From an uncultured Pseudohongiella sp. (GTDB lineage: Bacteria; Pseudomonadota; Gammaproteobacteria; Pseudomonadales; Pseudohongiellaceae), in NCBI GenBank assembly GCA_965221015.1, contig OZ244859.1:922046-986045 (forward strand): 64,000 bases of DNA. The letters run 5' to 3'. The notes beneath the pieces were generated by a model. That model saw only the letters and a list, made by a program, of their open reading frames with translations, did no database searches and was not told the origin of the DNA. A program made the translations under genes and the position numbers. Shown here piece by piece: positions 9,100-43,600 of this stretch; the first letter of the stretch is position 1, and each line of letters opens with the position of its first letter.

Positions 9100-9123
9100 C
9101 AGCCCATCATAACCGCGCCCGCG

Positions 9124-10474: not shown

Positions 10475-10534
10475 CCAGCCGTCGCGTTTCCCTTCCTTTA
10501 TATACCCGCCGAATCCCGGCCCGGCCCCGCGCCC

Positions 10535-19600: not shown

Positions 19601-22600
19601 ACGGACTGCGTTGGCAATACGCTCCGTAACCGGACCCCGCCCCGCGGCAATCAGATTACGTACGAGCTGGACAACACGGCGCCGACGGTGGCCATCACGG
19701 GCGTTTCCGGAACGGTCAACGCAGCGGTGGATGCCACCTTCACCTTCAGCGAGTCCGTCACCGGCTTCGAGGCCGGCGACATCACATTGACCAATGCCGA
19801 CGCTTCGGACTTCGCCCAGCCGGACCCGGCGGCGCCGGTCTACACGGCGAAGATCACGCCGAAGGCCGAGGGCGAGTTCAGCGTCGCCGTGGCGGCGGCC
19901 GTGGCCCAGGACGCCGCCGGCAACGACAACGCCGCCGCGACCACGGTCACCGCGATCTACGACGAACTGGAGCCGCCCGCCAAGCCGAGGAGCCTGGTCG
20001 CCATAGCCGGTGACGCGGAAGTCACCCTGATCTGGGCCAACCCCGGTGACGACAGCATCACCAAGTACCAGATTTTCAATTCTGAAACCGTGGGGATCAA
20101 CCTGTGGGATGACATTCCGGGCAGCGGCGCCGACACCATTACCCACACGGTGACCGGCCTGACCAACGGCACCGAGTACACCTTCCAGATCCGCGCCGTG
20201 GCCGGCAGCCTGCTGGGCGAAGCCTCCGACGCGGTCAAGGCGACGCCGCAAGTGGCGGTCCCGGACGCCCCGGACAACCTGACGGCCACCGCGGGCGACC
20301 GCTCGGTGAGCCTGAGCTGGGACCTGCCCACCAACGCCAGCGCGCTGGACAAGGTGCAGGTGCGCCACCAGGCCCGGGGCGAGACGACCTGGGAGCCCTG
20401 GACCGACCTGGCGGCGGACGCCACCACCCACACCGTGACCAACCTGAAGAACGGCCAGGACTACCTCTTCGAAGTGCGCGCGGAGAGCGCGTCCGGCGCC
20501 GGCCCGGCGGCGCGGACGGCCGGAACGCCGGAGCTGGCGGTCCCCGGCGCCCCGACCGGGCTCAGCGCCACGGCGGGCAACGCCGAAGTGGACCTGGCCT
20601 GGACGCTGCCCACCAACACCAGCGAGATCGACGCCGTGCAGGTGCGCTGGAAGGCCACGGCGGACCTGCCCTTCGACGACGCCCGCGACAAGTGGACCGA
20701 CCTGCCGTCCGCCGACGCCACCAGCCACAAGGTCACCGGCCTGACCAACGGCACCGGCTACACCTTCCAGGTGCGCGCCACCAACAGCGCCGGCAACGGC
20801 GACCCCGCCACCGGCGCGGCGACGCCCCGCGCGCCCCCGCTGGTGACGCCGGGCGCGCCGACCAACCTGAGCACGGTGCCCGGCGACACCGAGGTGGTGG
20901 TGCTGTGGACCCTGCCCACGAACACCAGCCAGATCGACAGCGTCGAGCTGCGCCACAAGGTGAAGACGGACCCCGACACCGGCTGGAGCCAGTGGACCTC
21001 CCTGGCCGGCACGGCGGACCGTTCCCGGGTGACGGGCCTGGTCAACGGCACCGACTACCTGTTCGAGGTCCGCGCGGTGAACACCGCGGGCACCGGCCCG
21101 TCGGCCAGCGTCGAGGGCACGCCGAATCTGGCGAAGCCCTCGTCCCCCAGCAACCTGCAGGCCAGCGCTGGCGACACACAAGTGACCCTGACCTGGGACC
21201 TGCCGGACAAGGGCACCGTGGACAGCATCGACGTGCGCCACAAGAAGAAGACGGACACAAGCTGGGGCCAATGGACCCTGCTGGCGGCGGACGCCACCAC
21301 CAGCACCGTGACCGGCCTCGACAACGGCGTGACCTACGAGTTCGAAGTCCGCGCCACCAACGCCGCCGGCAGCAGCGACCCGGTGGCCGTGGACGCCCAG
21401 CCGAAGCTGGCGGTCCCGGACGCCCCCGGCAACCTGACCGCGGCGCCCGGCGACGGCAAGGTCGGCCTGACCTGGGACCTGCCCACCAACACCAGCGAAA
21501 TCGACAGGATGCAGGTGGCATACAAGCTGAAGAGCGCGGCGAACTTCCAGCCCTGGGTTGACCTGGCGAAAGACGCCACCAGTTACGAAGTCACCGGCCT
21601 GACCAACGGCAGCGAGTACACGTTCATCGTGCGCGCGCTGAACGGCGCCGGCCGCGGCGCCGTGGCGGAGGTGGATTCGACGCCGGTGGCGGTGCCGACC
21701 GCGCCGACCGGCCTGGCGGCCACCCCCGGCGACACCCAGGTCGTCCTGAGCTGGACCCTGCCGGCAAACTCCGGCGTTCTGACCAGGGTGCAGGCGCGCC
21801 ACAAGGCGGACACGGCGAAGGACTGGGAGGCCTGGGTTGACTTGGCCGCGAACGCCACCACCCACACCGTGACGGGGCTGACCAACGGCCAGCTGTACAA
21901 CTTCGAGGTGCGGGCGGAGAACGCCTCCGGCCCCGGCGCGGCGGCGTCGGTCTCGGCCACCCCGGTTCCCCCGCTGGTGGCGCCTGGCGCGCCGACCAAC
22001 CTGAGCACGGTGCCCGGCGACACCGAAGTGGTGGTGCTGTGGACCCTGCCCACCAACACCAGACAAATCGACAGCGTCGAACTGCGCCACAAGGTGAAGT
22101 CGGCCCCCGACACCGGCTGGAGCCAGTGGACCTCCCTGGCCGGCACGGCGGACCGTTCCCGGGTGACGGGCCTGGTCAACGGCACCGACTACCTGTTCGA
22201 GGTCCGCGCGGTGAACACCGCGGGCACCGGCCCGTCGGCCAGCGTCGAGGGCACGCCGAATCTGGCGAAGCCCTCGTCCCCCAGCAACCTGCAGGCCAGC
22301 GCCGGCGACACACAAGTGACCCTGACCTGGGACCTGCCGGACAAGGGCACGGTCGACACCATCGACGTGCGCCACAAGAAGAAGACGGACACGGCCTGGA
22401 GCCAATGGACCTTGCTGGCCAAGGACGCCACCACCCACACCGTGACCGGCCTCGACAACGGCGTGACCTACGAGTTCGAAGTCCGCGCCACCAACGCCGC
22501 CGGCAGCAGCGACTCGGTGGCCGTGGACGCCCAGCCGAAGCTGGCGGTCCCCGAAGCCCCGACGAGCCTGACGGCAACCGGCGGCAACGCCCAGGTCGAA

Positions 22601-25600
22601 TTGAGCTGGACCCTGCCCACCAACGCCAGCGTGATCGGCGCGGTGCAGGTGCGCTGGAAGGCCACGGCGGACCTGCCGTTCACCGCCAGCGACGCCTGGA
22701 CCGACCTCGCCGGCACGGCCACCGCCTACACGGCCACCGGCCTGACCAACGGCACCGGCTACACCTTCGCGGTGCGCGCCACCAACACCGCCGGCGACGG
22801 CCCCGCAGCCACCACCGCGGCCACACCGGCGGCGGGGGCGGGTCTCGATGTTTCCGAGACCTTCCTCCGGGTGCCCGGAGGCGGCAGCGATACCTTCACC
22901 GTGAAGTTGGCAGCCGCGCCCAGCGGTCCGGTGACGGTGGCGGTGGCCAGCAACGAGTCCGACGTGACCGTGAGCCCGGTCATCCTCAACTTCGACGCCA
23001 CGAACTACGCCACGCCGCAAACCGTGACCGTCAACATGGCCGAGTATCGCAGGCCGTTGGGCGGCAATGGCACAGTGGCCCTGAGCGCCGCCGCCGGCGG
23101 CTACGACGGCATCACCGCGTCGGTGGAAGTCGCGTCCGTGCCCGTCCTGAAATCGATCAAGCGCCAGGACCCGACCGCCTCGCTCACCAACGCGGATCAA
23201 GTGCGCTGGAGAGTCACCTTCAGCGAGCGCGTGGACTTCGACGACGCATCCAAGTCCGCGTCCTACGCAACTTCGTTCAGCCCGAATTTGGCAAACCCGC
23301 CCGCGCCAGTGGTCTCTCCAGGGGCTATCCTGCCCGGTTGCAATGGCAGCCAGTACTTTGATGTGGACCTCGGCGACACCAACGCAATCACCACGCTGGA
23401 CGACTACAACGGCACGGTCACGCTAACGCTGAAATCGGATGCAAGAATCCAAAGCTGCACCGGCGTCGCAATTGGAGACCGAACGCCAACCGAACCGGTT
23501 GAGTCGTTCACTTTGGACAATATCGCGCCCACGGTGACCATCACCGGCGTTTCCGGCACGGTCACCGCGGCGGTGGACGCCACTTTCACCTTCAGCGAGC
23601 CGGTCACCGGCTTCGAGATCAGCGACATCAAGCTGACCAACGCCAACCCGTCGGATTTCGCCGAAGCGGGCAGCGCGGACGGGACCACCTACACCGCCAA
23701 GATCACCCCGAAGGCCGCCGGCGAATTCAGCGTTGGCGTGGAGGCGGATAAGGCCGAGGACGCCGCCGGCAACGGCAACACGGCCGCGACAACAGTCACC
23801 GCGACCTACCAATCGCCGAACAACCCGCCGGTGGTGGCCAACCCAATCCCGGACGTGGATCTGAACGAGGGCGTTTCCGAAACCGTGGACCTGTCGACGG
23901 TGTTCAGCGACCCGGACAACGACCCGCTGACCTTCAGCGCGGTGTCGAGCGACACCGACCTGGTGTCGGCGTCTGTGAATGGCAACACGCTCACCTACAA
24001 GGCGCTGGTGCCCGGCGGCGCGGCCACGGTGACGGTGACGGCCGACGACGGCAGAGGCGGCACCGTGGACGATGTGTTCGAGGTGACCACCCTCGTGCCG
24101 CCGAACGATCCGCCGACCCTGGACAATCCGCTCGCCGACCTGACGCTGACCGCGGGCGAAACGCGGGATGTGGATGTTTCGAAGGTGTTCAGCGACCCGG
24201 ACAACGACCCGCTGACCTACCTGGCAACTTCGGCCGACCCGTCGAAGGCGACCGTGTCGGTGAAGGACGCGATAGTCACGGTTGAAGGCGTTGCGGCGGG
24301 CACCTCGACGGTGACCGTGACGGCGGACGACGGCAAAGACGGCAAGGTGGACGATGAGTTCACCGTCACCGTGGAAGCGGACCTTGCGCCGGACTTCGGC
24401 ACGGCGACCATCGACAACCAGCTCTACACGCAGGGCGTGGCCGTCACGAAGCTGACCCTGCCCGAAGCGAGCGGCGGCAATGGCACCTTGAGCTACACGC
24501 TCCAGCCGTCGCTGCCAGCCGGCCTGGCGTTCGACGCGAACAGCCGGGAGATTACGGGAACGCCCACGGCCGTGAGCGCGGCGGCTTCCTACGACTACAC
24601 GGCGACGGACGCGGACGGCGACACGGCAACCCTGAAGTTCATCATCGAAGTCAAGGCGAACACTGCGCCCAGCTTCGGCACGGCGACGGTGCCGGCGCAG
24701 ACCTACACGCGGGGCGAGGCGATCACCGCCCTGCAGTTGCCCGCCGCGACCGGCGGCAACGGTGCGCTGACCTACGGAATAGAGCCGGCGCTGCCGAACG
24801 GCCTGGCATTCAACGCCAGCAAACGGGATATCACCGGAACGCCGACGGTGGTGACAGCGCAGGCGACCTACAGCTACACGGCGACGGATGCGGACGGCGA
24901 CGCGGCGACCTTGACGTTCACCATTGAAGTGGTGGCGGCGGTGAACCAACCGCCGGTGGTGGACAATCCGATCCCGGACCAGACGCTGAGTGAGGGCAAG
25001 TCCGGCACCGTGGACCTGTCTACGGTGTTCAGCGACCCGGAGAACGACCCGCTGACCTTCGGCGCGGTGTCGAGCGACACGGCCCAGGTGACGGTGGCGG
25101 TAGTAGGTTCCACGCTCACGTTCACGGCCGTGTCGGCCGGCGCGCCGACGCTGACGGTGACCGCGGACGACAACAAAGGCGGCAAGGTCAACGATGTGTT
25201 CGTTGTGACGGTGGTGGCGAACGAGTTGCCCAGCTTCGGCACCGAGACCATCGCCCACCAGCACTACACCTTGAACACGGCCATCGCCACGCTGAACTTC
25301 CCCGCAGCCACCGGCGGCAACGCCCCGCTGACCTACAGCCTGAGCCCGGTCGCCCCCGCGGGCCTGACCTTCGACGCCGACGCCCGCACGCTGACCGGCA
25401 CGCCCACCGCGGCCCGGCCCGCCACGGCCTACACCTACACCGCCACCGACGCCGACGGCGACACGGCGAGCCTCAGTTTCAACATCACCATCAGGGACCC
25501 GCAGGCGCCGCCCGCCAAGCCCGGCAACCTCACCGCCACGGCCGGCGACACCGAAGTCACCTTGAACTGGGATAACCCCAACGACGCCAGCATCACCAAG

Positions 25601-28600
25601 TACCAGTATGTCTCCCGGGAAGGCCTGGGGATTGGTCTGTGGCAGGACATTCCGGGCAGCGGCGCCGGCACCACCAGCTACACGGTGACCGGCCTGACCA
25701 ACGGCACCGAGTACAGCTTCCAGATCCGGGCGGTGAACAACGGCGGCAACAGCGACGACTCCGACACCGTCACCGCAACGCCGCGGGCCGACACCACGCC
25801 CAGCTTTGGCACCGAGACCATCGCCGACCAGAACTACACCCAGAACACGGCCATCGCCACGCTGAACCTGCCCGCTGCCACCGGCGGCAACGCCCCGCTA
25901 ACCTACAGCCTGAGCCCGGCCGCCCCCGCGGGCCTGCTGTTTGACGCCGTCAACCGCACCTTGACGGGCACGCCCACAACGGCCCAGAGCCAGGCGGCCT
26001 ACACCTACACCGCCACCGACGCCGACGGCGACGCAGTCAGCCTCACCTTCAACATCACCATTGCCCAGGCCCCGACCCAGGCGCGCACGTTGACCTTCAC
26101 CTTCTCCGATGACGGCACCACCACCACCATTGCCGCTTCGGGCAGTTTGGATGTCTCGGGCTTCAATTATCTCCAGGATACGACGCCGCAAGGTGAGGGA
26201 TTCTCAGGTCTGCTTATAGACGATACGGAGATATGGCAAATTATGCCTCAGTCGGATACCACACCACTTAGCTGGTATGGCTCGCTCCCGAACTTTGTGA
26301 CCACCGGCACGAGCACCTACACGGGTAATGCGAAAGTCGAAACACTGAGCAACTACAGCCACGATTTTGCCATCCGGTTCAGCACTTATCTTCCGAGGCT
26401 GTACATAGATAAAACCAATCTCACCGGAAACATTTATGACCTGACGGGCAAGAATGTGACGTTCACCGGCACCCTGTCCGGGACTCTTGGGGACAATGAC
26501 TTCCATATCGAACATGCGTTTGGCAATCAGAAGATCATCTTCAAGGCAACACCGCCGCCGGTACCCGCCGCGCCCGCCAACCTGGCCGCCGCGCCCGGCG
26601 ACACCGAAGTCACCCTGAGCTGGAACAACCCGAACGATTCCAGCATCACCAAGTACCAGCTCCGCCAGGCGCAAGGCGCAAGCGTGCCCGGCAGCACCGT
26701 CTGGGCCGACATCACCGGCAGCGGCGCCGGCACCACCAGCCACACGGTCACCGGCCTGACCAACGGCCAGCAATACGCCTTCCAGATCCGGGCGGTGAAC
26801 AACGCCGGCAACAGCGACGCCTCCGACACCGTCACCGCGACGCCGCGGGTCGACACTGATCCCAGCTTCGGCACCGAGACCATCGCCGACCAGAACTACA
26901 CCCGCAACACGGCCATCGCCACGCTGACCCTGCCCGAAGCCACCGGCGGCAACGGCACCCTGACCTACAGCCTGAGCCCGAACGCCCCGGCCGGCCTGAA
27001 CTTCGACGCCACCAACCGCACCCTCACCGGCACCCCGAGCGCGGTCCAGGATGCGACGCAGTACACCTACACCGCCACCGACGCCGACGGCGACACGGCC
27101 AGCCTGACGTTCAACATCACCGTCGCCGAGGCGGTCGAGCCGCCCGCCAGCCCCAGCAACCTGATCGCCATAGCCGGCGACACCAGGGTCACCCTGGTCT
27201 GGATCGACCCGAACGACCCCACCATCACCGGCTACGAGGTTCTCTACCAGTACGGCTCCGATCCCTGGGAGCCCATCGAGGGCAGCGACGCCACGACCAC
27301 CCGCCACACCGTGGAGAACCTGGTCAACGGCACGGAGTACACCTTCCAGATCCGCGCCGTGGCCGGCAAAGTCCCGGGCGATCCCTCGATCGCGGTCAAG
27401 GCGACGCCGCAAGTGGCGGTTCCCGACGCCCCGGAGAACCTGACGGCCACCGCGGGCGACCGCTCGGTGAACCTGAGCTGGGACCTGCCCACCAACGCCA
27501 GCGTGCTCGACAAGGTGCAGGTGCGCCACCAGGCCCGGGGCGAGACCACCTGGGAGCCCTGGACCGACCTGGCCGCGGACGCCACCACCCACACCGTGGC
27601 CAACCTGAAGAACGGCCAGGACTACTTCTTCGAAGTGCGCGCGGAGAGCGCGTCCGGCGCCGGCCCGGCGGCGCGGACGGCCGGACGGCCGGAGCTGGCG
27701 GTTCCCGAAGCCCCCGGCAACCTGACCGCGGCGCCCGGCGACGGCGCGGTGGGCCTGACTTGGGACCTGCCGACCAACACCAGCGAAATCGACAAGATGC
27801 AGGTGGCTTACAAGGTGAAGAGCGCGGCGAACTTCCTGCCTTGGGTTGACCTGGCGAAGGACGCCACCAGCCACGACGTCACCGGCCTCACCAACGGCAC
27901 CGAGTACACGTTCGTCGTGCGCGCGCTGAACGACGCCGGCCGCGGCGCCGAGGCGGAGGTGGACGCGACGCCGGTGGCGGGGCCGGGCAAGGTGCCGTCC
28001 GCGCCGGCCGACCTGGCGGCGACGGCGGGCGACACCCAAGTGACGTTGACTTGGACCCATGCGCGGGACAACAGCATCACCAAGTACCAGGTCCGCCACA
28101 TTGAAGGCGCCAGCGTGCCCGACAGCGAGCCTTGGACCGACATAGCCGGCAGCAACGCCGGCACCACCGGTCACACGGTGACCGGCCTGACCAACGACAC
28201 CCTGCACGCCTTCGAAATCCGCGCGGTGAACGCCAACGGCGCGGGCGCGGCCTCGGCGGTGACGGCGACGCCGAAGCTGGCGATCCCCGAAGCTCCCGGC
28301 AACCTGACCGCGGCGCCCGGCGACGGCAAGGTCGGCCTGACCTGGGACCTGCCCACCAACACGAGCGAAATCGACAGGATGCAGGTGGCATACAAGCTGA
28401 AGAGCGCGGCGAACTTCCAGCCCTGGGTTGACCTGGCGAAAGACGCCACCAGTTACGAAGTCACCGGCCTGACCAACGGCAGCGAGTACACGTTCATCGT
28501 GCGCGCGCTGAACGGCGCGGGCCGCGGCGCCGTGGCGGAGGTGGATTCGACGCCGGTGGCGGTGCCGACCGCGCCGACCGGCCTGGCGGCGGCCCCCGGC

Positions 28601-31600
28601 GATACCCAGGTCGTCCTGAGCTGGACCCTGCCGGCAAACTCCGGCGCGCTGACCAGGGTGCAGGCGCGCCACAAGGCGGACACGGCGAAGGACTGGGAGG
28701 CCTGGGTTGACCTGGCGGCGAACGCCACCACCCACACCGTGACCGGCCTGACCAACGGCGAGCTGTACAACTTCGAGGTGCGGGCGGAGAACGCCTCCGG
28801 CCCCGGCGCGGCGGCGTCGGTCTCGGCCACTCCGGTGCCCCCGCTGGTTGCCCCTGGCGCGCCGACCAACCTGAGCGCGGTGCCCGGCGACACCGAGGTG
28901 GTGGTGCTGTGGACCCTGCCCACGAACACCAGCCAGATCGACAGCGTCGAACTGCGCCACAAGGTGAAGTCGGCCCCCGACACCGGCTGGAGCCAGTGGA
29001 CCTCCCTGGCGGGCACGGCGGAGCGCTCCCGGGTGACGGGCCTGGCCAACGGCACCGACTACCTGTTCGAGGTCCGCGCGGTGAACACCGCGGGCACCGG
29101 CCCGTCGGCCAGCGTCGAGGGCACGCCGCAGCTGGCGAAGCCCTCGTCCCCGAGCAACCTGCAGGCCAGCGCCGGCGACACACAAGTGACCCTGACCTGG
29201 GACCTGCCGGACAAGGGCACCGTGGACACCATCGACGTGCGCCACAAGAAGAAGACGGACACAAGCTGGAGCCTCTGGACCCGGCTGGCGGCGGATGCCA
29301 CCACCACCACCGTGACCGCCCTCGACAACGGCGTGACCTACGAGTTCGAGGTCCGCGCCAGCAACGGCGCCGGCAGCAGCGACCCGGTGGCCGTGGACGC
29401 TCAGCCGAAGCTGGCGGTCCCCGAAGCCCCGACGAGCCTGACGGCAACCGGCGGCAACGCCCAGGTCGAATTGAGCTGGGCCCTGCCGACCAACGCCAGC
29501 GTGATCGGCGCGGTGCAGGTGCGCTGGAAGGCCACCGCCGACCTGCCGTTCAGCGCCGGCGACGCCTGGACCGACCTCGCCGGCACGGCCACCGCCTACA
29601 CGGCGACGGGCCTGACCAACGGCACCGGCTACACCTTCGAAGTGCGCGCCACCAACACCGCCGGCGACGGCCCCGCGGCCACCGCCGCGGCCACACCGAT
29701 GGCGCCCTCGACCCCGGCGCGCACATTGACCCTCACTTTCTCCGATGACGGCAGCACCGTGACCGTTGCGGCCTCGGGCAGCTTGGACGTGTCGGGCTTC
29801 AGTGATCGAGGGGATACAACAAGGCAAAGGATTGGGGGGGCGGGAACACTTATCCTAATAAATGATGAATTTGAGAAGTGGCAAGTTTCTGTACCATTCG
29901 AAGATCCCACACCGCTTCGCGAGTACCGTTCGCTCCCGGCCTTCGTGATAACTGGATTGAGCTCTTACTCCGGTTATTCGGCACTCGAATTCCTGAATGA
30001 CTACAGCACTGAGTTCACCATCCGACTTAACAGTTACTATAAGTTGCTATTCATAGACAAGGCCAATCTCACCGGAAACATCTACGACCCAACAGGAGAC
30101 GTGGCGACGTTCTCGGGCACCCTGCTCACCACGTTGCAAGACAACGACTTCCACATCGAGATCGCCATCGGCAATCAAAAGGTTATTTTCAAGACAGCAT
30201 CCCCAGCCACGGTGCCGGACGCGCCAACCGGACTGGCCGCGGCCGCGGGCAATGCCCAGGTTGACCTGGCTTGGACCAACCCGAACGACAGCAACATCAC
30301 CAGGTACCAGGTGCGCTACGGCTCGGGTTCCACCGTGCCCGCCACCGCCACCTGGGAAGACATCACCGGCAGCGGCGCCGGCACCACAACCCACACCGTC
30401 GCCGGCCTCACCAACGACACCGAGTACGCCTTCGAAATCCGCGCGGTGAACGCCCGCGGCAACAGCGCCGCCTCCGCCACGGTGACGGCGACGCCGGAGG
30501 CCGACACCACGCCGAGCTTCGGCACCGAGACCATCGCCGACCAGAACTACACCCGCAACACGGCCATCGCGACCCTGACCCTGCCCGAGGCCACCGGCGG
30601 CAACGGCACCCTGACCTACAGCCTGAGCCCCAACGCCCCCGCGGGCCTGAACTTCGACGCCACCAACCGCACCCTCACCGGCACGCCGAGCGCGGTCCAG
30701 GATGCGACGCAGTACACCTACACCGCCACCGACGCCGACGGCGACACGGCCAGCCTGACGTTCAACATCACCATCGCCGAGGCGGTCGAGCCGCCCGCCA
30801 AGCCCAGGAACTTCACTGCCGTGGCCGGCGACACGGAAGTCACCCTGAACTGGGAAGATCCCCGGGACGACAGCATCACCAAGTACCAGATTTTCGACTT
30901 TGAAAACGTGGGCTTTGACCTGTGGGATGACATTCCCGGCAGCGGCGCCACCACCACCACCCACACGGTGACCGGCCTGACCAACGGCACCGAGTACAGC
31001 TTCCAGATCCGCGCCGTGGCCGGCAGCCTCCCGGGCGACGCCTCCGACGCGGTCAAGGCGACGCCGCAACTGGCGGTCCCCGACGCGCCGACCGGGCTCA
31101 GCGCCACGGCGGGCAACGCCGAAGTGGACCTGAGCTGGAAGCTGCCCACCAACACCAGCGAGATTGTCGCCGTGCAGGTGCGCTGGAAGGCCACAGTGGA
31201 CCTGCCGTTCGACAACGCCAGCGACAAATGGACCGACCTTCCGTCCTCCGATGCGACCGACCACAAGGTCACCGGCCTGACCAACGGCACCGGCTACACC
31301 TTCCAGGTGCGCGCCACCAACAAGGCCGGCAACGGCCAGCCGGCCACCGGCGCGGCGACGCCGCGGGCGCCTCCGGGCAAGGTGCCGTCCGCGCCCGCCG
31401 ATCTGGCGTCGACCCCCGGCGACACACGGGTCACCCTGAACTGGACCCTGCCGACCGACGGGGGCGCGCTGACCAAGGTGCAGGTGCGCCACCAGGCCCG
31501 GGGCGAGACCACCTGGGAGCCTTGGACCGACCTGGCCGCGGACGCCACCACCCACACCGTGGCCAACCTGAAGAACGGCCAGGACTATCTGTTTGAAGTG

Positions 31601-34600
31601 CGCGCGGAGAGCGGGGCCGGCGCCGGCCCGGCGGCGCGGGTGACCGGAAGGCCGGAGCTGGCGGTCCCCGGCGCCCCGACCGGGCTCAGCGCCACGGCGG
31701 GCAACGCCGAAGTGGACCTGGCCTGGACGCTGCCCACCAACACCAGCGAGATTGTCTCCGTGCAGGTGCGCTGGAAGGCCACAGTGGACCTGCCGTTCGA
31801 CGACGCCCGCGACAAGTGGACCGACCTTCCGTCCTCCGCGGCCACCGACCACAAGGTCACCGGCCTGACCAACGGCACCGGCTACACCTTCCAGGTGCGC
31901 GCCACCAACAAGGCTGGCAACGGCGAGCCGGCCACCGGCGCGGCGACGCCGCGGGCGCCGCCGCTGGTGACGCCGGGCGCGCCGACCAACCTGAGCACGG
32001 TGCCCGGCGACACCGAGGTGGTGGTGCTGTGGACGCTGCCCACGAACACCAGCCAGATCGACAGCGTCGAGCTGCGCCACAAGGTGAAGACGGCCCCCGA
32101 CACCGGCTGGAGCCAGTGGACCTCCCTGGCCGGCACGGCCGAGCGTTCCCGGGTGACGGGCCTGGTCAACGGCACCGACTACCTGTTCGAGGTCCGCGCG
32201 GTGAACACCGCGGGCACCGGCCCGTCCGCCAGCGTCGAGGGCACGCCGCAGCTGGCGAAGCCCTCGTCCCCGAGCAACCTGCAGGCCAGCGCCGGCGACA
32301 CACAAGTGACCCTGACCTGGGACCTGCCGGACAAGGGCACCGTGGACAGCATCGACGTGCGCCACAAGAAGAGGGCGGACACAAGCTGGGGCCAATGGAC
32401 CCTGCTGGCGGCGGATGCCACCACCCACACCGTGACCGGCCTCGACAACGGCGTGCCCTACGAGTTCCAGGTCCGCGCCACCAACGCCGCCGGCAGCAGC
32501 GACCCGGTGGCCGTGGCCGGAACGCCGAAGCTGGCGGTCCCGGACGCCCCCGGCAACCTGACCGCCTCCGCGGGCGACGGCGCGGTGGCCCTGACCTGGG
32601 ACCTGCCCACCAACACCAGCGAAATCGACAATATGCAGGTGGCATACCGGGAGTCCGGCGCGGCCAACTACCTGCCCTGGGTCGACCTGGCGAAGGACGC
32701 CACCAGCTACGACGTTACCGGCCTGACCAACGGCACCGAGTACAACTTCATCGTGCGCGCGCTGAACGGCGCGGGCCGCGGCGCCGAGGCGCGGGTGGAC
32801 GCGACGCCCGAGGCGGGGCCGGGCAAGGTGCCGTCCGCGCCGGCCGACCTGGCGGCGACGGCGGGCGACACCAAGGTTTCGCTGGCGTGGATCCAGTCCC
32901 GCGACAATAGCATCACCAAGTACCAGTTCCGCTACGCCGAAGGCGCGTCCGTGCCCGGCACCGAGAGCTGGACCGACATCGCCGGCAGCGGCGCCGGCAC
33001 CACCGGCCACGAAGTGACCGGCCTGACCAACGACACCCTGCACGCCTTCGAGATCCGCGCGGTGAACGCCAACGGCGCCGGCGCGGCCTCGGCGGTGACG
33101 GCGACGCCGAAGCTGGCGATCCCCGAAGCTCCCGGCAACCTGACCGCGGCGCCCGGCGACGGCAAGGTCGGCCTGACCTGGGACCTGCCCACCAACACGA
33201 GCGAAATCGACAGGATGCAGGTGGCATACAAGCTGAAGAGCGCGGCGAACTTCCAGCCCTGGGTTGACCTGGCGAAAGACGCCACCAGTTACGAAGTCAC
33301 CGGCCTGACCAACGGCAGCGAGTACACGTTCATCGTGCGCGCGCTGAACGGCGCGGGCCGCGGCGCCGTGGCGGAGGTGGATTCGACGCCGGTGGCGGTG
33401 CCGACCGCGCCGACCGGCCTGGCGGCGGCCCCCGGCGATACCCAGGTCGTCCTGAGCTGGACCCTGCCGGCAAACTCCGGCGCGCTGACCAGGGTGCAGG
33501 CGCGCCACAAGGCGGACACGGCGAAGGACTGGGAGGCCTGGGTTGACCTGGCGGCGAACGCCACCACCCACACCGTGACCGGCCTGACCAACGGCGAGCT
33601 GTACAACTTCGAGGTGCGGGCGGAGAACGCCTCCGGCCCCGGCGCGGCGGCGTCGGTCTCGGCCACTCCGGTGCCCCCGCTGGTTGCCCCTGGCGCGCCG
33701 ACCAACCTGAGCGCGGTGCCCGGCGACACCGAGGTGGTGGTGCTGTGGACCCTGCCCACGAACACCAGCCAGATCGACAGCGTCGAACTGCGCCACAAGG
33801 TGAAGTCGGCCCCCGACACCGGCTGGAGCCAGTGGACCTCCCTGGCGGGCACGGCGGAGCGCTCCCGGGTGACGGGCCTGGCCAACGGCACCGACTACCT
33901 GTTCGAGGTCCGCGCGGTGAACACCGCGGGCACCGGCCCGTCGGCCAGCGTCGAGGGCACGCCGCAGCTGGCGAAGCCCTCGTCCCCGAGCAACCTGCAG
34001 GCCAGCGCCGGCGACACACAAGTGACCCTGACCTGGGACCTGCCGGACAAGGGCACCGTGGACACCATCGACGTGCGCCACAAGAAGAAGACGGACACAA
34101 GCTGGAGCCTCTGGACCCGGCTGGCGGCGGATGCCACCACCACCACCGTGACCGCCCTCGACAACGGCGTGACCTACGAGTTCGAGGTCCGCGCCAGCAA
34201 CGGCGCCGGCAGCAGCGACCCGGTGGCCGTGGACGCCCAGCCGAAGCTGGCGGTCCCCGAAGCCCCGACGAGCCTGACGGCAACCGGCGGCAACGCCCAG
34301 GTCGCCCTGAGCTGGACCCTGCCGACAAACGCCAGCGTGATCGGCGCGGTGCAGGTGCGCTGGAAGGCCACCGCCGACCTGCCGTTCAGCGCTGGCGACG
34401 CCTGGACCGACCTCGCCGGCACGGCCACCGCCTACACGGCCACCGGCCTGACCAACGGCACTGGCTACACCTTCGCAGTGCGCGCCACCAACACCGCCGG
34501 CGACGGCCCCGCGGCCACCGCCGCGGCCACACCGATGGCGCCCTCGACGCCGGCGCGCACGTTGACCTTCACCTTCTCCGATGACGGCACCACCACCACC

Positions 34601-37600
34601 ATTGCCGCCTCCGGAAGCCTGGATATGTCCAGCTTTAGAGAAGTCGGGGATACGGTGCCGGAAGACATCATCTACATCAAGATAGACGACACCGAAGACT
34701 GGGCATTTCATCCGTCGTCGGTAGGCGGGATCCCGTCGAAGCGCTACGACCAGCTGCCGGACTTCAACATAATCGGAAGGAATACCTACACGGGTACTAC
34801 GTCTATCGACAGCGCGCAAAACTACAGCAACGAGTTCACCATCCGGTTCAGCACCTTCCGCAAGTACATGGTCGTGGACAAGGCCAGCCTCAACGGGGAC
34901 ATCTATAACCCGACGGGCAAAAAGGTCACGCTCTCGGGCACCGTGCTCGGCACCTTCGGCGACAACGACTTCCGCATCGAGCTTGGGATTGGCAACCAGA
35001 AGATCGTTTACACGGCAACACCGCCGCCGGTACCCGCCGCGCCCGCCAACCTGGCCGCCGCGCCCGGCGACACCGAAGTCACCCTGAGCTGGAACAACCC
35101 GAACGATTCCAGCATCACCAGGTACCAGCTCCGCCAGGCCCAGGGCCAAACCGTGCCCGGCAGCACCGCCTGGACCGACATCGCCGGCAGCGGCGCCGCC
35201 ACCACCAGCCACACGGTGTCGGACCTCATCAACGGCCAGCAATACGCCTTCCAGATCCGGGCCGTGAACAACGCCGGCAACAGTGACGCCTCCGACACCG
35301 CCACCGCGACGCCGCGGGCCGATACTGATCCCAGCTTCGGCACCGAGACCATCGCCGACCAGAACTACACCCGCAACACGGCCATCGCCACGCTGACCCT
35401 GCCCGAAGCCACCGGCGGCAACGGCACCCTGACCTACAGCCTGAACCCGGCCGCCCCCGCGGGCCTGAATTTCGACGCCACCAACCGCACCCTCACCGGC
35501 ACCCCGAGCGCGGTCCAGGATGAGACGGCCTACACCTACACGGTCACCGACGCCGACGGCGACACGGCGACACTCACGTTCAACATCACCGTCGCCGAGG
35601 CGGTCGAACCGCCCGCCAAGCCCAGGAACTTCACCGCCGTGGCCGGCGACACGGAAGTCACCCTGAACTGGGAAGATCCCAGGGACGACAGCATCACCAA
35701 GTACCAGATATTCGACTTTGAAAACGTGGGCTTTGACCTGTGGGATGACATTCCGGGCAGCGGCGCCACCACCGCCACCCACACGGTGACCGGCCTGACC
35801 AACGGCACCGAGTACACCTTCCAGATCCGCGCCGTGGCCGGCAGCCTCCCGGGCGACGCCTCCGACGCGGTCAAGGCGACGCCGCAAGTGGCGGTTCCGG
35901 ACGCCCCGGACAACCTGACGGCCACCGCGGGCGACCGCTCCGTGAGCCTGAGCTGGGACCTGCCCACCAACACCAGCGCGCTGGACAAGGTGCAGGTGCG
36001 CCACCAGGTCCGGGGCGAGACCACCTGGGAGCCCTGGACCGACCTGGCCGCGGACGCCACCACCCACACCGTGGCCAACCTGAAGAACGGCCAGGACTAC
36101 CTGTTCGAAGTGCGCGCGGAGAGCGCGTCCGGCGCCGGCCCGGCGGCGCGGGTGGCCGGAACGCCGAAGCTGGCGGTCCCGGACGCCCCCGGCAACCTGA
36201 CCGCCTCCGCGGGCGACGGCGCGGTGGCCCTGACCTGGGACCTGCCCACCAACACCAGCGAAATCGACAATATGCAGGTGGCATACCGTGAGTCCGGCGC
36301 GGCCAACTACCTGCCCTGGGTCGACCTGGCGAAGGACGCCACCAGTTACGACGTCACCGGCCTGACCAACGGCACCGAGTACAACTTCATCGTGCGCGCG
36401 CTGAATGGCGCGGGCCGCGGCGCCGAGGCGCGGGTGGACGCGACGCCCGAGGCGGGGCCGGGCAAGGTGCCGTCCGCGCCGGCCGACCTGGCGGCGACGG
36501 CGGGCGACACCAAGGTTTCGCTGGCGTGGACCCAGTCCCGCGACAACAGCATCACCAAGTACCAGTTCCGCTACGCCGAAGGCGCGTCCGTGCCCGGCAC
36601 CGAGAGCTGGACCGACATCGCCGGCAGCGGCGCCGGCACCACCGGCCACACGGTGACCGGCCTGACCAACGACACCCTGCACGCCTTCGAAATCCGCGCG
36701 GTGAACGCCAACGGCGCCGGCGCGGCCTCGGCGGTGACGGCCACGCCGAAGCTGGCGATCCCCGAAGCCCCCGGCAACCTGACCGCGGCACCCGGCGACG
36801 GCAAGGTCGGCCTGACCTGGGACCTGCCCACCAACACCAGCGAAATCGACAGGATGCAGGTGGCATACAAGCTGAAGAGCGCGGCGAACTTCCAGCCCTG
36901 GGTTGACCTGGCGAAAGACGCCACCAGTTACGAAGTCACCGGCCTGACCAACGGCAGCGAGTACACGTTCATCGTGCGCGCGCTGAACGGCGCCGGCCGC
37001 GGCGCCGTGGCGGAGGTGGATTCGACGCCGGTGGCGGTGCCGACCGCGCCGACCGGCCTGGCGGCGGCCCCCGGCGACACGCAAGTCGTGCTCAGCTGGA
37101 CCCTGCCGACCAACTCCGGCGCGCTGACCAGGGTGCAGGCGCGCCACAAGGCGGACACGGCGAAAGACTGGGAGGCCTGGGTTGACCTGGCCGCGAACGC
37201 CACCACCCACACCGTGACCGGCCTGACCAACGGCGAGCTGTACAACTTCGAGGTGCGGGCGGAGAACGCCTCCGGCCCCGGCGCGGCCGCGTCGGTCTCG
37301 GCCACCCCGGTGCCCCCGCTGGTTGCCCCTGGCGCGCCGACCAACCTGAGCACGGTGCCCGGCGACACCGAGGTGGTGGTGCTGTGGACCCTGCCCACCA
37401 ACACCAGGCAGATCGACAGCGTCGAGCTGCGCCACAAGGTGAAGGCGGCCCCCGACACCGGCTGGAGCCAGTGGACCTCCCTGGCCGGCACGGCGGAGCG
37501 TTCCCGGGTGACGGGCCTGGTCAACGGCACCGACTACCTGTTCGAGGTCCGCGCGGTGAACACCGCGGGCACCGGCCCGTCGGCCAGCGTCGAGGGCACG

Positions 37601-40600
37601 CCGCAGCTGGCGAAGCCCTCGTCCCCGAGCAACCTGCAGGCCAGCGCCGGCGACACAACGGTGACCCTGACCTGGGACCTGCCGGACAAGGGCACCGTGG
37701 ACACCATCGACGTGCGCCACAAGAAGAAGACGGACACAAGCTGGAGCCTCTGGACCCGGCTGGCGGCGGATGCCACCACCACCACCGTGACCGCCCTCGA
37801 CAACGGCGTGACCTACGAGTTCGAGGTCCGCGCCAGCAACGGCGCCGGCAGCAGCGACCCGGTGGCCGTGGACGCCCAGCCGAAGCTGGCGGTCCCCGAA
37901 GCCCCGACGAGCCTGACGGCAACCGGCGGCAACGCCCAGGTCGCCCTGAGCTGGACCCTGCCGACAAACGCCAGCGTGATCGGCGCGGTGCAGGTGCGCT
38001 GGAAGGCCACCGCCGACCTGCCGTTCAGCGCCGGCGACGCCTGGACCGACCTCGCCGGCACGGCCACCGCCTACACGGCCACCGGCCTGACCAACGGCAC
38101 TGGCTACACCTTCGCAGTGCGCGCCACCAACACCGCCGGCGACGGCCCCGCGGCCACCGCCGCGGCCACACCGGCGCTGCCGCCGGGTATTGCGGTGTCG
38201 CCGGACAGCCTCCAGATCAGGCCGGGTGCCAGCGCCACCTTCACCGCGGCGCTGTCCACCGAGCCGAGCGGCACGGTGACCGTGGCCGTGACCAGCAACG
38301 ACAGCGACGTGACGGTGGATTCGGCTTCCTCCAGCCTGACCTTCACCGCCGCGAATTACGCCACGCCGCAAACGGTGACCGTGAACATGGTTGCGAACCC
38401 GGACGACGGCAACGCGACCATCAATCTGGCCGCCAGCGGCGGCGGCTACGCCGGCGTGACCGCCTCGGTGGCGGTGAGCCTGGAGCCCGCGCCCAGCTTC
38501 GGCACGCAGACGGTGGCCGACCAGACCTACAGCCAGGATCTGGCCATCACCACCTTGAACCTGCCCGAAGCCACCGGCGGTGACACTCCGCTGACCTACA
38601 CGCTGACGCCAACGCCCCCGGCGGGATTGGTCTTCGACGCCGCAAACCGCACCCTCGCCGGCACGCCGACCGCGGTCCAGGTTGCGACGCCATACACCTA
38701 TACCGTCACCGATGACAATGGCGACGCGGCAAGCCTCACGTTCAACATCACAATCACCTTGCCGCCGGCGCCGGACGCGCCCACAGGCTTGGCCGCGGTG
38801 GGCAGCGACACCAAGGTCACATTGACCTGGACGGACCCGGGCAACACCTCCATCACCAAGTACCAGCTGCGCTACCGTGAAGGTCCCACCGTGCCCGGCA
38901 CCGCCGACTGGGAGGACATCCCCGGCAGCGATGACACGACCACAACGCACCAAGTGAGCGGCCTTCTCAACGGATACGAATACGCGTTCCAGATTCGCGC
39001 GGTGAACGCCGGCGGCGAGAGCGACCCCTCGGCAACGGTGACGGCAAGGCCGTCGATCGAAGGCCGACCGCCCCCCGCAACCATAGTCAGCGTGGGTCCG
39101 GGCACCAACGACAAAGACCTCGACATTGTCTGGAACTGGAGCCTCGGCGATTCGCCATGCACCATGAATTCCTACACGATCGAATACAAGAGAAGCGATG
39201 CTTCCGAGTGGAACGACCACGCCGCAACTAAGCCGAACTCGCCCGAGCATGGCGTGTTTGAAATCTACGAGGATCTTGGTACCGGGGTCACCAACAAGCG
39301 CAACACGATCAACTTGCAGACCGTTGGTCGCAATCCCGGTGAGGTCGGCGTATCGCTGGATGACACCACTTACGATGTCCGTATCCGCATGTGGTCACTG
39401 GTCTGCTTTGAGTTGGACCAAGACTTTCCAGACCATGAAAGCGGCAGGCCGTTCTACCTGTTGGGCAAGCCGACCAGCTTCACCGCAACGGCGGGTGACG
39501 CGAAGGCGACGCTGGCGGCAACCGTGGCGCAGCGCGGCCCGGCGATCCAGAAGTGGCAGTACACCTACAAAGAGGGCGCCGCCGGCACCTTCATCGACTG
39601 GACCGACATCGCCGACAGCGCTTCCTTGACGATTTCCGACAAGGATGTGGCGGGCCTGACCAACGGCACCACCTATACCTTCAAGGTGCGCGGGGTCCAC
39701 GAGCAAGGCGCGGGCGCCGAGTCGGATGAAGTGATGGTGACGCCGGTGTCCGCGGTGAACACGCCGCCGACGGCTTCCGACAATACCGTCACCACGGATG
39801 AGGACACCGCCTACACCTTTGACGCCGCCGACTTCAACTTCAGTGACGTGGACAGCGGCGACACCCTCGCCAGTGTGAAGATCACCGGCCTTGAAACCGC
39901 CGGCGCGTTGCAGCTGAGCGGCGCCGACGTGACCCTGGACCAGGTGATCACCGCCGCCGATATTGACGGCGACAACCTGACCTTCACCCCGGCGGCCAAC
40001 GCCAACGGCGACCCCTACGCCAGCTTCGGGTTCTCGGTCAACGACGGCACCGACGACAGCACGGCGTCCTACACCATGACCATCGACGTGACGCCGGTGA
40101 ACGACGCGCCCACCGTGGCCAACGCCATCGGCGCCCGTTCGGTGGCCGCCGGCTCGAACCTGACCGTGGCGCTGGAAACCGACGGCAGCGAAGTGTTCAA
40201 CGACGTTGACGGCGACGCGCTGACCTATACGGCCACGTCCGCCACCGAAACCGCGGCGACGGTAACCGTGGACAACGACGCCAACACGATCACGCTGACC
40301 GGCGTCGCGGCTGGCACTTCGGAGATCACTGTGACCGCGGCCGACGGCAACGGCGGTACGGTGAACGACACGTTCACGCTGACGGTCACGGCCGCGCCGC
40401 CGACCAACACCCCGCCGACGGCTTCCGACAATACCGTCACCACGGATGAGGACACCGCCTACACCTTCGACGCCGCCGACTTCAACTTCAGCGACGTGGA
40501 CAGCGGCGACACCCTCGCCAGCGTGAAGATCACCGGTCTTGAAACCGCCGGCGCGTTGCAACTCAGCGGCGCCGACGTGACCCAGGACCAGGTGATCACC

Positions 40601-43600
40601 GCCGCCAGCATAGACGGCGACAACCTGACCTTCACCCCGGTGGCCAACGCCAACGGCGACCCCTACGCAACGTTCCAGTTCAGCGTCAACGACGGCACCG
40701 ACGACAGCACGGCGTCCTACACCATGACCATCGACGTAACCGCCGTGAACGACGCGCCCACCGTGGCCAACGCCATCGGCGCCCGCACCGTGGCCGCAGG
40801 CTCGAACCTGACCGTGGCGCTTGAGACATCTGGCAGCGAAGTGTTCAACGATGTTGACGGCGACACGCTGACCTACTCGGCCACTTCCGCCACCGAAACC
40901 GCCGCGACGGTTACGGTGGACAACGACGCGAACACAATCACGCTGACCGGCGTCGCGGCTGGCACTTCGGAGATCACTGTGACCGCGGCCGACGGCAACG
41001 GCGGTACGGTGAACGACACGTTCACGCTGACGGTCACGGCCGCGCCGCCGACCAACACCCCGCCGACGGCTTCCGACAATACCGTCACCACGGATGAGGA
41101 CACCGCCTACACCTTCGACGCCACCGACTTCAACTTCAGCGACGTGGACAGCGGCGACACCCTCGCCAGCGTCAAGATCACCGGCCTCGAAACCGCCGGC
41201 GCCCTGCAACTGAGCGGCGCCGACGTGACCCAGGACCAAGTGATTCCGGTAGCCAACATCGACGGCGACAACCTGACCTTCACCCCGGCGGCCAACGCCA
41301 ACGGCGACCCCTACGCAACGTTCCAGTTCAGCGTCAACGACGGCACCGACGACAGCGCCGCGTCCTACACCATGACCATCGACGTCACGCCGGTGAACGA
41401 CGCGCCCACCGTGGCCAACGCCATCGGCGCCCGCACCGTGGCCGCAGGCTCGAACCTGACCGTGGCGCTTGAGACATCTGGCAGCGAAGTGTTCAACGAT
41501 GTTGACGGCGACACGCTGACTTATACGGCCACGTCCGCCACCGAAACCGCGGCGACGGTAACCGTGGACAACGACGCCAACACAATCACGCTGACCGGCG
41601 TCGCGGCGGGCACTTCGGAGATCACCGTCACCGCGGCCGACGGCAACGGCGGCAGCGTCACCAACACTTTCACCTTGACCGTGACCTCGGACCCCGGCCC
41701 GACCAACACCCCGCCGACGGCTTCCGACAACACCGTCACCACGGACGAAGACACGGCCTACACGTTTGACGCCGCCGACTTCAACTTCAGCGACGTCGAC
41801 TCCGGCGACACCCTCGCCAGCGTCAAGATCACCGGCCTCGAAACCACCGGCGCCCTGCAACTGAGCGGCGCCGACGTGACCCAGGACCAAGTGATTCCGG
41901 TAGCCAACATCGACGCCGACAACCTGACCTTCACCCCGGCCGCCAACGCCAACGGCGACCCCTACGCAACCTTCCGGTTCTCGGTCAACGACGGCGAAGC
42001 CGACAGCGCCGCGTCCTACACCATGACCATCGACGTGACGCCGGTGAACGACGCGCCCACCGTGGCCAACGCCATCGGCGCCCGTTCGGTGGCCGCCGGT
42101 TCGAACCTGACCGTGGCGCTTGAGACATCTGGCAGCGAAGTATTCAACGATGTCGACGGCGACACGCTGACCTACTCGGCCACGTCCGCCACCGAAACCG
42201 CGGCGACGGTAACCGTGGACAACGACGCCAACACAGTCACGCTGACCGGCGTCGCGGCTGGCACCTCGGTGATCACCGTGACCGCAAACGACGGCAACGG
42301 CGGCAGCGTCACCGACACCTTCACCTTGACCGTGACCTCGGACCCCGGCCCGACCAACACCCCGCCGACGGCTTCCGACAATACCGTCACCACGGATGAG
42401 GACACCGCCTACACCTTCGACGCCGCCGACTTCAACTTTAGCGACGTGGACAGCGGCGACACCCTCGCCAGCGTCAAGATCACCGGCCTTGAAACCGCCG
42501 GCGCCCTGCAACTCAGCGGCACCGACGTGACCCAGGACCAGGTGATCACCGCGGCCAACATCGACGGCGACAACCTGACCTTCACCCCGGCCGCCAACGC
42601 CAACGGCGACCCCTACGCAACGTTCCAGTTCAGCGTCAACGACGGCACCGACGACAGCGCCGCGTCCTACACCATGACCATCGACGTCACCGCCGTGAAC
42701 GACGCGCCCACCGTGGCCAACGCCATCGGCGCCCGCACCGTGGCCGCAGGCTCGAACCTGACCGTGGCGCTTGAGACATCTGGCAGCGAAGTGTTCAACG
42801 ATGTTGACGGCGACACGCTGACCTACTCGGCCACTTCCGCCACCGAAACCGCCGCGACGGTTACGGTGGACAACGACGCGAACACAATCACGCTGACCGG
42901 CGTCGCGGCTGGCACTTCGGAGATCACCGTGACCGCAAACGACGGCAACGGCGGCAGCGTCACCGACACCTTCACGCTGACCGTGACTTCGGACCCCGGC
43001 CCGACCAACACGCCGCCGACGGCTTCCGACAACACGGTCACCACGGATGAAGACACCGCCTACACCTTCGACGCCGCCGACTTCAACTTCAGCGACGTGG
43101 ACAGCGGCGACACCCTCGCCAGCGTGAAGATCACCGGCCTTGAAACCGCCGGCGCCTTGCAACTGAGCGGCGCCGACGTGACCCAGGACCAAGTGATTCC
43201 GGTAGCCAACATCGACGCCGACAACCTGACTTTCACCCCGGCCGCCAACGCCAACGGCGACCCCTACGCAACCTTCCGGTTCTCGGTCAACGACGGCGAA
43301 GCGGACAGCGCCGCGTCCTACACCATGACCCTCGACGTGACGCCGGTGAACGACGCACCCACCGTGGCCAACGCCATCGGCGCCCGTTCGGTGGCCGCCG
43401 GCTCGAACCTGACCGTGGCGCTTGAGACATCTGGCAGCGAGGTGTTCAACGACGTTGACGGCGACACGCTGACTTATACGGCCACTTCCGCCACCGAAAC
43501 CGCGGCGACGGTAACCGTGGACAACGACGCCAACACGATCACGCTGACCGGCGTCGCGGCTGGCACTTCGGAGATCACTGTGACCGCGGCCGACGGCAAC

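Follow-up and report, generated by a model that had tools for sequence, protein, structure and literature searches.

The giant adhesins MpIBP of Marinomonas, LapA of Pseudomonas and SiiE of Salmonella are type I secreted proteins with an N-terminal retention module, and their binding domains lie near the C-terminal, distal end. Conserved frames that carry variable tips are found in the CdiA-CT and Rhs toxins, and also in the cassettes that underlie antigenic variation of pilins and adhesins. Here we analyzed a stretch of 64,000 nucleotides from an uncultured Pseudohongiella sp. (contig OZ244859.1, positions 922,046 to 986,045), referred to below as the window, which contains a giant open reading frame (ORF) with four copies of a domain that we call X. 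We consider it probable that X is the head of type Va autotransporter-like fibres, and that old types of its variable core are swapped by recombination.

The giant protein resembles MpIBP, LapA and SiiE in having a very long extender of near-identical immunoglobulin (Ig)-like repeats, homogenised at the DNA level, that would project ligand-binding domains off the cell. It differs from them in that its putative signal peptide and predicted C-terminal barrel point to type V secretion, and in that the head is N-terminal and repeated along the fibre; a Pfam scan and our reading of the sequence gave no repeats-in-toxin (RTX) or type I secretion system signal in the giant protein. The likeness to type Va autotransporter adhesins lies in the putative signal peptide, the presumed surface passenger, the predicted C-terminal barrel with its terminal aromatic residue and a functional part that is N-terminal, i.e., distal, and several short proteins of the X family pass the Pfam model PF03797. 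Unlike in these adhesins, the passenger is not a beta-helix but about 100 or more FN3, He_PIG and cadherin-like beta-sandwiches (>12,000 residues), the giant protein has four novel heads, and its barrel scores just under the Pfam cut-off. As with CdiA-CT/Rhs tips and antigenic-variation cassettes, constant flanks give homology for recombination and discrete, divergent inserts are traded between loci and strains, but here the variation lies inside a folded beta domain and the exchange crosses phyla. In the window, where 19 flanking ORFs were scanned against Pfam, we saw neither toxin or immunity genes nor a silent array of cassettes.

In sponge symbionts, FN3 and cadherin "attachment" genes are enriched and laterally transferred (Robbins et al. 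2021, PMC8163846). Our system is similar in that FN3/cadherin-rich surface proteins occur across distant lineages of one probably host-associated community, but PMC8163846 is a survey of domain counts and lateral gene transfer, without the X domain, discrete types or cassette replacement. Giant repeat adhesins and autotransporters are already known, as is the lateral transfer of FN3/cadherin genes among sponge symbionts (PMC8163846); the novelty lies in the X domain, in its repetition along a type V fibre and in a cassette system that crosses phyla. The X family, which has no relative in the libraries searched, would form the working end of proteins that are among the largest known in bacteria, and it turns a general claim about the sharing of attachment genes in host-associated microbiomes into a specific, testable case (10 kb at 96-97% identity across phyla, with the heads replaced).

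X is a novel all-beta domain family

A profile built from the four window copies (alignment A1) found four X domains in the giant ORF and none further (local hmmsearch, E 1e-82 to 1e-90; domain bounds at residues 170-335, 5313-5479, 6525-6695 and 8137-8302), the same number that an earlier note on this DNA had counted by reading the sequence. The positions that the note gave for X1, X2 and X3 are in frame, but its start for X4 (34557) is off by one base, and translation from it runs into stops; the positions used here are collected in Table 1. The other three window copies are 45-52% identical to X1, and 49 columns are invariant across the four, with 18 of these in the N-terminal 26 residues, 21 in the C-terminal block and 9 in the core of ~75 residues. 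The conserved frame consists of an N-terminal hairpin (TLTFTFSDDG...GSLD) and a C-terminal block (NLTG.IY...TF.GTL...LGDNDFHIE..GNQKI.F). The note had described both ends as conserved, and the alignment bears this out. It had also called the cores almost unalignable, and while the core is the most divergent part, this was overstated: amino acid identity among the paralogues is 59-81% in the N-strand, 27-48% in the core and 53-71% in the C-block, and the cores align with few gaps.

Our searches placed X in no named family, as the earlier note had supposed. In Pfam there was no match to X1, X2 or X4 at E values up to 10, and X3 matched only PglD_N (E = 0.17, i.e., noise); across 37 family members, Pfam gave only scattered matches of single members at E = 0.0014 or weaker. 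NCBIfam gave no match to X, and a search of all PDB sequences with the X profiles found nothing below E = 0.1. Comparison by hhalign of X with the protein's own FN3 and He_PIG profiles gave a probability of 0.3% or less in each case, and of the N-terminal with the C-terminal half of X, 0.2%, with no internal duplication; on these results, we rejected the idea that X is a divergent FN3/Ig domain or the product of an internal duplication.

AlphaFold2 run with the four window copies only (A1) gave an unusable model (predicted local distance difference test score, pLDDT, of 38.5), and we used instead an alignment of 37 family members (A2). From A2, the model of X2 reached a pLDDT of 93.7 and a predicted template modelling (TM) score of 0.89, with all five models above 92. 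The predicted structure is all-beta, with ~13 strands and one short helix, and the variable core is well ordered in it. Foldseek comparison of this model with PDB gave a best E of 0.06 and a query-normalised TM score of 0.27 or less, and with BFVD a best E of 0.086; among the structures in these two databases, it resembles no known lectin or carbohydrate-binding module (CBM). X is a novel, independently folding, all-beta domain family of ~155-165 residues, and there is a real chance that the predicted fold itself is new.

Distribution of the X family

Our scan of one genome per species (185,579 species) identified 36 loci (L numbers), all from a single series of chromosome-level metagenome-assembled genomes (MAGs; OZ2447xx-OZ2449xx and CBDCSC01). 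Taking the taxa as labelled in the record titles, the X family spans five phyla within this series. The labels of the X-bearing MAGs are Acidobacteriota (Ca. Multivoraceae); Gammaproteobacteria (Ca. Rariloculaceae, Ca. Azophilus, Ca. Foliamicus, Arenicellales, Ca. Porisulfidus and unclassified); Alphaproteobacteria (including Paracoccaceae); Thermodesulfobacteriota; Nitrospirales; and Gemmatimonadota (Longimicrobiales). Four of the Candidatus lineages and the orders Longimicrobiales and Arenicellales were checked in the NCBI taxonomy, where Ca. Porisulfidus is not listed. Porisulfidus is called a known sponge symbiont in a genome note (PMC12988363), and this, together with the mix of taxa, indicates that the MAG series is probably sponge-associated.

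Among proteins, HMMER run over all 1.84 billion representatives identified 41 with X; the source was checked for 10 of these, and each was confined to ENA/NCBI. When 5.8 billion clustered proteins were searched through a word index, only four fragments (P0001-P0004) were returned. These fragments (105-256 residues; cf. locus L037) finish in out-of-frame sequence and have the appearance of giant genes that frameshifts or misassembly have interrupted in low-coverage ENA contigs, which helps to account for the seeming near-absence of the family in this search. The earlier note had proposed a search of metagenomes; our scan of 241 million JGI metagenome records identified no relatives, and the viral contigs of IMG/VR held none either.

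In the Gammaproteobacteria MAG OZ244905.1 (positions 1051462-1104182), three loci (L002, L021 and L009), each open in one frame from end to end, extend over ~53 kb, within which a 2-kb stretch between L021 and L009 is covered by none of them. Together they contain at least 10 X modules, five of these within 4.5 kb (L021:7541-12061), with the X types ordered differently from those of the window, and this gene may be even larger than the giant gene that we describe.

Old core types are exchanged as cassettes between genomes

Comparison of the giant gene with the other loci identified stretches of 8-10 kb that are 95-97% nucleotide-identical to giant genes in MAGs labelled Acidobacteriota, Azophilus, Foliamicus and Rariloculaceae, and 3 kb at 94.5% nucleotide identity with a Nitrospirales-labelled MAG. 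The shared stretches cover positions 12744-26157 and 30053-39059 of the window (against L001, L004, L005, L006, L013, L022, L023 and L017). The starts of the giant genes in different MAGs have unrelated flanks, except among closely related Gammaproteobacteria, and the flanks in the window match none of the loci. Because identity is this high over 8-10 kb while the window flanks are unmatched, these data point to a very recent cross-phylum transfer of giant adhesin DNA.

One exchange of a head is seen between the window and the Acidobacteriota locus L001, where we followed sliding nucleotide identity over window positions 25400-27200. Identity is 97-100% in the upstream backbone and into the N-strand of X2 (up to ~26120), 40-58% in the X2 core (26150-26410), 63-83% in the C-block and the first FN3 (26414-26900), and 93-100% from the He_PIG onward (from ~26920). 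Relative to L001, X2 is a replaced cassette of ~800 nucleotides, with its left junction in the conserved N-strand and its right junction at the He_PIG; the first FN3 moves together with X, and the two genomes become highly identical again in the He_PIG. The same contrast appears across loci: among the cross-genome pairs whose two flanks both reach 88% identity (32 pairs), core identity has a bimodal distribution, in that it is 0.85 or more in 23 pairs and less than 0.65 in 8, with one pair intermediate.

Clustering by core identity (75% or more, single linkage) resolved the 84 unique X copies into 38 core types, with mean identity between types of 0.34 in the core and 0.56 in the framework, and the four modules of the window are of four different types. 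Several core types are common to Acidobacteriota, Gamma- and Alphaproteobacteria, Nitrospirales and Thermodesulfobacteriota MAGs. Heads of the X1 type are terminal in some genomes and internal in others; for example, internal copies of this type in the Acidobacteriota MAG locus L001 and in L002 and L003 have modules that are 90-93% identical to X1 in amino acid sequence and cores that are 92-99% identical to that of X1. X3 is 94% identical in amino acid sequence to the copy at L002:19010.

By the Nei-Gojobori method, the cores of the four window paralogues have ratios of nonsynonymous to synonymous substitution rates (dN/dS) of 0.34-0.59, with dS of 0.9-1.9, i.e., near saturation, compared to a dS of 0.1-0.6 among paralogues for the FN3 and He_PIG domains that adjoin X. 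The cores are therefore old and not homogenised, rather than fast-evolving. Between genomes, cores of the same type are 87-99% identical in amino acid sequence, with dS of only 0.02-0.06 for X1 and X2. Core identity and core dS, set against the dS of the downstream FN3 and He_PIG, are 99% and 0.019 against 0.22 for X1 and the Acidobacteriota locus L001; 99% and 0.06 against 0.25 for X2 and the gammaproteobacterial locus L002; 96% and 0.275 against 0.29 for X3 and the same locus; and 87% and 0.11 against 0.41 for X4 and the gammaproteobacterial locus L007. Nothing else in the region is as well conserved between genomes as a given core type. These crude estimates of core dN/dS never exceeded 1, and positive selection on the cores was rejected on this basis; the few ratios of 0.7-0.9 are based on a total of 8-9 substitutions. 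Our findings carry a caution for genome analysis, in that divergent paralogue cores with shifted codon usage can mean old exchangeable types and not rapid evolution.

Architecture of the predicted giant adhesin and of its short relatives

From its domain content and ends, the product of the giant gene is classed as a type Va autotransporter-like adhesin. Its C-terminus matches PF03797 with E = 1.1e-5 (25.8 bits; gathering cut-off 26) and is homologous to the C-termini of seven X-family proteins (phmmer, E 1e-21 to 1e-11). These include P0030 and P0022 (E 1e-21 to 1e-15), both of which pass PF03797. The protein ends in an aromatic residue (the F of RMNF) that is typical of outer-membrane barrels. 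At the other end, we read a leader (MARRFAPLSAAKRVLSKAAATLALSALALVSLGMSASAQA, followed by QTLT...) with a basic n-region, a hydrophobic stretch and a putative cleavage site, A-Q-A before Q, that directly precedes X1; equivalent leaders with X following at once occur in the homologues P0001/P0006 and at loci L004, L005, L007 and L008. X1 would be the distal tip, since the putative signal peptide immediately precedes it and the C-terminal barrel would anchor the other end.

The short relatives have the same plan. P0020, P0022 and P0030 have the layout X, FN3/He_PIG, PF03797, P0016 terminates in OMP_b-brl, and in most of the short relatives X starts almost at the signal-peptide cleavage site, a few residues away at most. 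Judged from these proteins, the family in its simple form has a signal peptide, X, a few FN3/He_PIG domains and an outer-membrane barrel. The suggestion in the earlier note that X forms heads spaced along a fibre gains support from this context, i.e., X as the first domain in relatives, a signal peptide before X1 and a barrel at the far end. In a Paracoccaceae MAG (L032-L034) there are tandem separate genes, each beginning with X (920-940 residues at L034), and these look like the unfused state.

Profiles made from the protein's own repeats confirmed the order that the note had described, X followed by FN3, He_PIG and a run of FN3: X, FN3 and He_PIG follow one another in all four modules, with 9-13 further FN3 after X2, X3 and X4. 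Self-BLAST of the gene showed the stalk repeats to be homogenised, with ~92% nucleotide identity over 2-3.6 kb, and this homology ends at the X cores.

Interpretation and alternative explanations

We propose that X is a "head" unit carried on stalks of FN3 and He_PIG (Ig-like) domains, and that in the simple form of the family it would occupy the end most distant from the cell. The giant gene would string four head-plus-stalk units, plus cadherin-like/He_PIG arrays, before one barrel, with X1 at the tip and X2-X4 displayed along a fibre that may be hundreds of nanometres long. The structured core of ~75 residues would exist as discrete, old, stably maintained types within a conserved framework, and these types would move by homologous recombination, both between positions in the gene and between genomes. 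The homology arms would be the conserved N-strand of X and the similar downstream He_PIG and FN3 repeats, and recombination at such arms would leave near-identical backbones in different bacteria bearing different heads. From its position and its pattern of variation, the variable core may set the binding specificity for a surface ligand of the host or of a neighbour, and the Asp-rich conserved motifs SDDG and GDNDF may bind Ca2+.

Several points weigh against this proposal. The adhesive role, and with it the role in specificity, is read from position and variation pattern only, and the fold matches no known binding fold. The barrel match of the giant protein falls 0.2 bits under the Pfam gathering score, and type Va export of a passenger of >12,000 residues made of globular beta-sandwich domains is unusual. 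Some of the 32 matched-flank pairs may be paralogous positions and not true allelic swaps, since the flanks are repeated within genes; the pattern of the same frame with a different head holds even if some pairs are paralogous. Finally, assembly chimerism across shared repeats would affect these comparisons, and the MAG taxonomy comes from record titles only.

A more far-reaching version of our proposal, which we advance tentatively and regard as less likely to be right than wrong, is that X is a new fold that provides a community-wide set of horizontally traded recognition cassettes, with at least ~38 specificities, which unrelated symbionts of one host, probably a sponge, would recombine at the conserved frame into the giant autotransporter fibres that they share. 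If true, this would amount to a cross-phylum "public" adhesin toolkit, tuning which host or neighbour surface each bacterium sticks to.

One alternative concerns composition, and we hold it to be possible though doubtful. It says that X is "normal" DNA without any sign of separate origin, rich in N/D/F/Y/I/K/S/T, and that it is the surrounding tandem FN3 DNA that has been pushed to an extreme G+C content at third codon positions (GC3) by intragenic gene conversion. The earlier note had reported a richness in A/T-ending codons, and this was borne out for X1 (0.695), X2 (0.660) and X3 (0.637) against a GC3 of 0.884 for the whole gene, while X4 (0.814) is only marginal, its value being near the level of the flanking genes. 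Across 211 windows of the gene, GC3 follows the best intragenic paralogue identity (Spearman 0.60, p = 1e-21), with 0.80-0.83 in unique segments and 0.92-0.93 in highly repeated ones (0.93 where paralogues are at least 92% identical), as would fit GC-biased conversion among the tandem FN3/He_PIG repeats. The GC3 contrast of X is thus exaggerated, because the repeated stalk DNA has an unusually high GC3, and G+C content at the first and second codon positions of X is also low (0.43-0.49). However, X1-X3 (0.64-0.70) are still below the baseline of the unique segments of the same gene and below most of the flanking chromosomal genes (0.72-0.86), and their cores are at 0.51-0.65, the lowest being that of X3 (0.512).

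Composition in other genomes also argues against this explanation. X has a lower GC3 than the rest of its own ORF in 85% of 89 copies, and GC3 is constant per type across hosts, i.e., 0.70-0.73 for the X1 type, ~0.65 for X2, 0.62-0.65 for X3 and 0.80-0.82 for X4. The GC of the host flanks ranges from 0.48 to 0.73, and the giant ORFs of the closely related group (L004-L008, L019 and L028) stay at 0.64-0.68, with their X modules at ~0.57. In the Thermodesulfobacteriota and Arenicellales genes, which are low in GC, X does not differ from its surroundings (~0.63-0.70). Thermodesulfobacteriota genes hold the nearest non-orthologous relatives of X2, and the GC3 of the X2 type matches that of the giant genes in low-GC hosts that carry the nearest relatives of this core. 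Low GC3 is a property of each cassette type that travels with the cassette, and it fits distinct histories for each type. The separate origin that the earlier note had offered as one explanation is retained in a modified form, as discrete, ancient types that are swapped as cassettes and whose GC3 is type-specific and host-independent.

The main competing account of what X does, which we judge to be rather unlikely, is that X is an element of structure or biogenesis (an N-terminal cap, a folding nucleus or a unit that pauses secretion), with the internal copies being relics of fusion between once-separate autotransporter genes that have no role in binding. It would account for X as the first mature domain of the single-unit relatives, for the tandem Paracoccaceae genes that each start with X and for the strong conservation of the framework, and it sits well with the lack of resemblance to known lectins or CBMs. 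A cap, however, needs no ~38 core types maintained on a constant framework, and it does not explain the targeted replacement of cassettes in near-identical backbones. The internal copies are moreover intact and under purifying selection, and heads of the X1 type are both terminal and internal in other genomes.

It is very unlikely, in our view, that the near-identity and the swaps arose artificially, when metagenomes sharing a repeat-rich gene were assembled or binned. All the relatives do come from one MAG series, the genes are highly repetitive and the taxon labels are taken from record titles, but the copies are 3-4% divergent over 10 kb and not identical, the genes start in different, non-homologous flanks outside the closely related Gammaproteobacteria, the hosts differ widely in flank GC, and the ORFs run without interruption through entire loci of 20 kb and through 38 kb of the window. 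Assembly chimerism, too, is made less likely by the 3-4% divergence and by the distinct flanks.

The earlier note's reading, that the cores are rapidly or adaptively diversifying ligand-binding loops driven by an arms race or by hypermutation (e.g., by a diversity-generating retroelement), is likewise very unlikely: it is favoured by the low identity of the cores compared to the ends (27-48% against 53-81% among the four copies) and by the shift in composition in the core, but core dN/dS is well below 1 with near-saturated dS, cores of one type are more conserved across genomes than their flanks, there are ~38 discrete types with bimodal core identity between matched flanks, and no reverse transcriptase was found among the scanned ORFs of the window, nor was a template repeat seen, although without a dedicated search. 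Neither a reverse transcriptase nor a transposase was matched when the 19 flanking ORFs were compared with Pfam. Diversity-generating retroelements and hypermutation of the cores were rejected since no reverse transcriptase was found in these ORFs and since the cores fall into discrete types, with differences at 50-70% of residues.

Map of the locus and neighboring genes

Pfam scans showed that the giant protein is built mostly of FN3, He_PIG and cadherin-like/Big domains, and its last 520 residues are a Gly/Met-rich linker and the barrel region, ending ...LLDFRMNF.

Table 1. Positions of the X modules and of other features of the locus, numbered from the first letter of the window
Feature	Position	Strand	Remarks
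Metal_resist/anti-sigma-like protein	7435-8028	-	Upstream neighbor
ECF-type (extracytoplasmic function) sigma-70 factor	8521-9099	-	Upstream neighbor
EF-hand Ca2+-binding protein	9127-9693	-	Upstream neighbor
Giant ORF	10127..48163	+	12,678 residues; ORF list, Pfam scans, own-repeat domain map
Signal peptide (putative Sec)	10535..10654	+	MARRFAPLSAAKRVLSKAAATLALSALALVSLGMSASAQA, then Q; abuts X1; read from sequence
X1	10655..11116	+	Residues 177-330, core type 2; mature N-terminus
X1 parts	N-strand 10652-10747, core 10748-10957, C-block 10958-11110	+	Alignment
FN3 + He_PIG pair after X1	11135-11701	+	Domain tables
X2	26081..26548	+	Residues 5319-5474, core type 4; AlphaFold2 target
X2 parts	N-strand 26081-26176, core 26177-26389, C-block 26390-26542	+	Alignment
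FN3 + He_PIG after X2	FN3 26564-26845, He_PIG 26879-27127	+	Domain tables
X3	29717..30196	+	Residues 6531-6690, core type 8
X3 parts	N-strand 29717-29812, core 29813-30037, C-block 30038-30190	+	Alignment
FN3 + He_PIG pair after X3	30215-30778	+	Domain tables
X4	34553..35020 (approximate)	+	Residues 8143-8298, core type 10
X4 parts	N-strand 34553-34648, core 34649-34858, C-block 34859-35011	+	Alignment
FN3 + He_PIG pair after X4	35033-35596	+	Domain tables
Gly/Met-rich low-complexity linker	46502..46852	+	~117 residues, GMGG/GMNG repeats, directly before barrel; sequence reading
Predicted C-terminal outer-membrane beta-barrel, autotransporter beta-domain-like	46955..48160	+	Pfam PF03797 and phmmer

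The probable true start of the giant ORF is the ATG at 10535. The first 136 codons of the long ORF are likely untranslated, because they have a low GC3 and contain a tandem repeat, and because the homologues begin at the equivalent of this ATG. The repeat has a unit of 15 nucleotides (GCAACAAAAGGCCGC) present in 7.2 copies at 10360-10467, and is in frame with the long ORF as (AAQQK)n; lying just 5' of the ATG, it is probably 5' leader or promoter DNA. Sigma-70-like hexamers are present upstream of the giant gene, at 9850-9969.

Two further features of the giant gene were seen outside the X modules. A tandem array at 39758-44025 has a period of 648 nucleotides (216 residues) and ~6.5 copies at 91-93% nucleotide identity, with each unit made up of one He_PIG and a segment of ~127 residues; Pfam calls this region Cadherin_4/Cadherin_5/Big_9. 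Other segments with low GC3 (minima 0.68-0.71) occur at 11726-12445, 17699-18385, 19262-19540, 23234-23563 and 39038-39499, and these segments, which are mostly unique and fall at gaps in the FN3/He_PIG map, may be further unassigned domains.

The flanking genes are ordinary chromosomal ones, which encode an NHL-repeat protein, a nucleoside transporter, an M28 peptidase, an ECF sigma factor and an EF-hand protein, together with a thiolase, Band 7/NfeD proteins, two-component proteins and an ammonium transporter. Three genes on the minus strand, divergent from the giant gene, lie just upstream of it (7435-9693), and this trio of EF-hand, ECF sigma and Metal_resist genes might be a regulatory unit for the adhesin.

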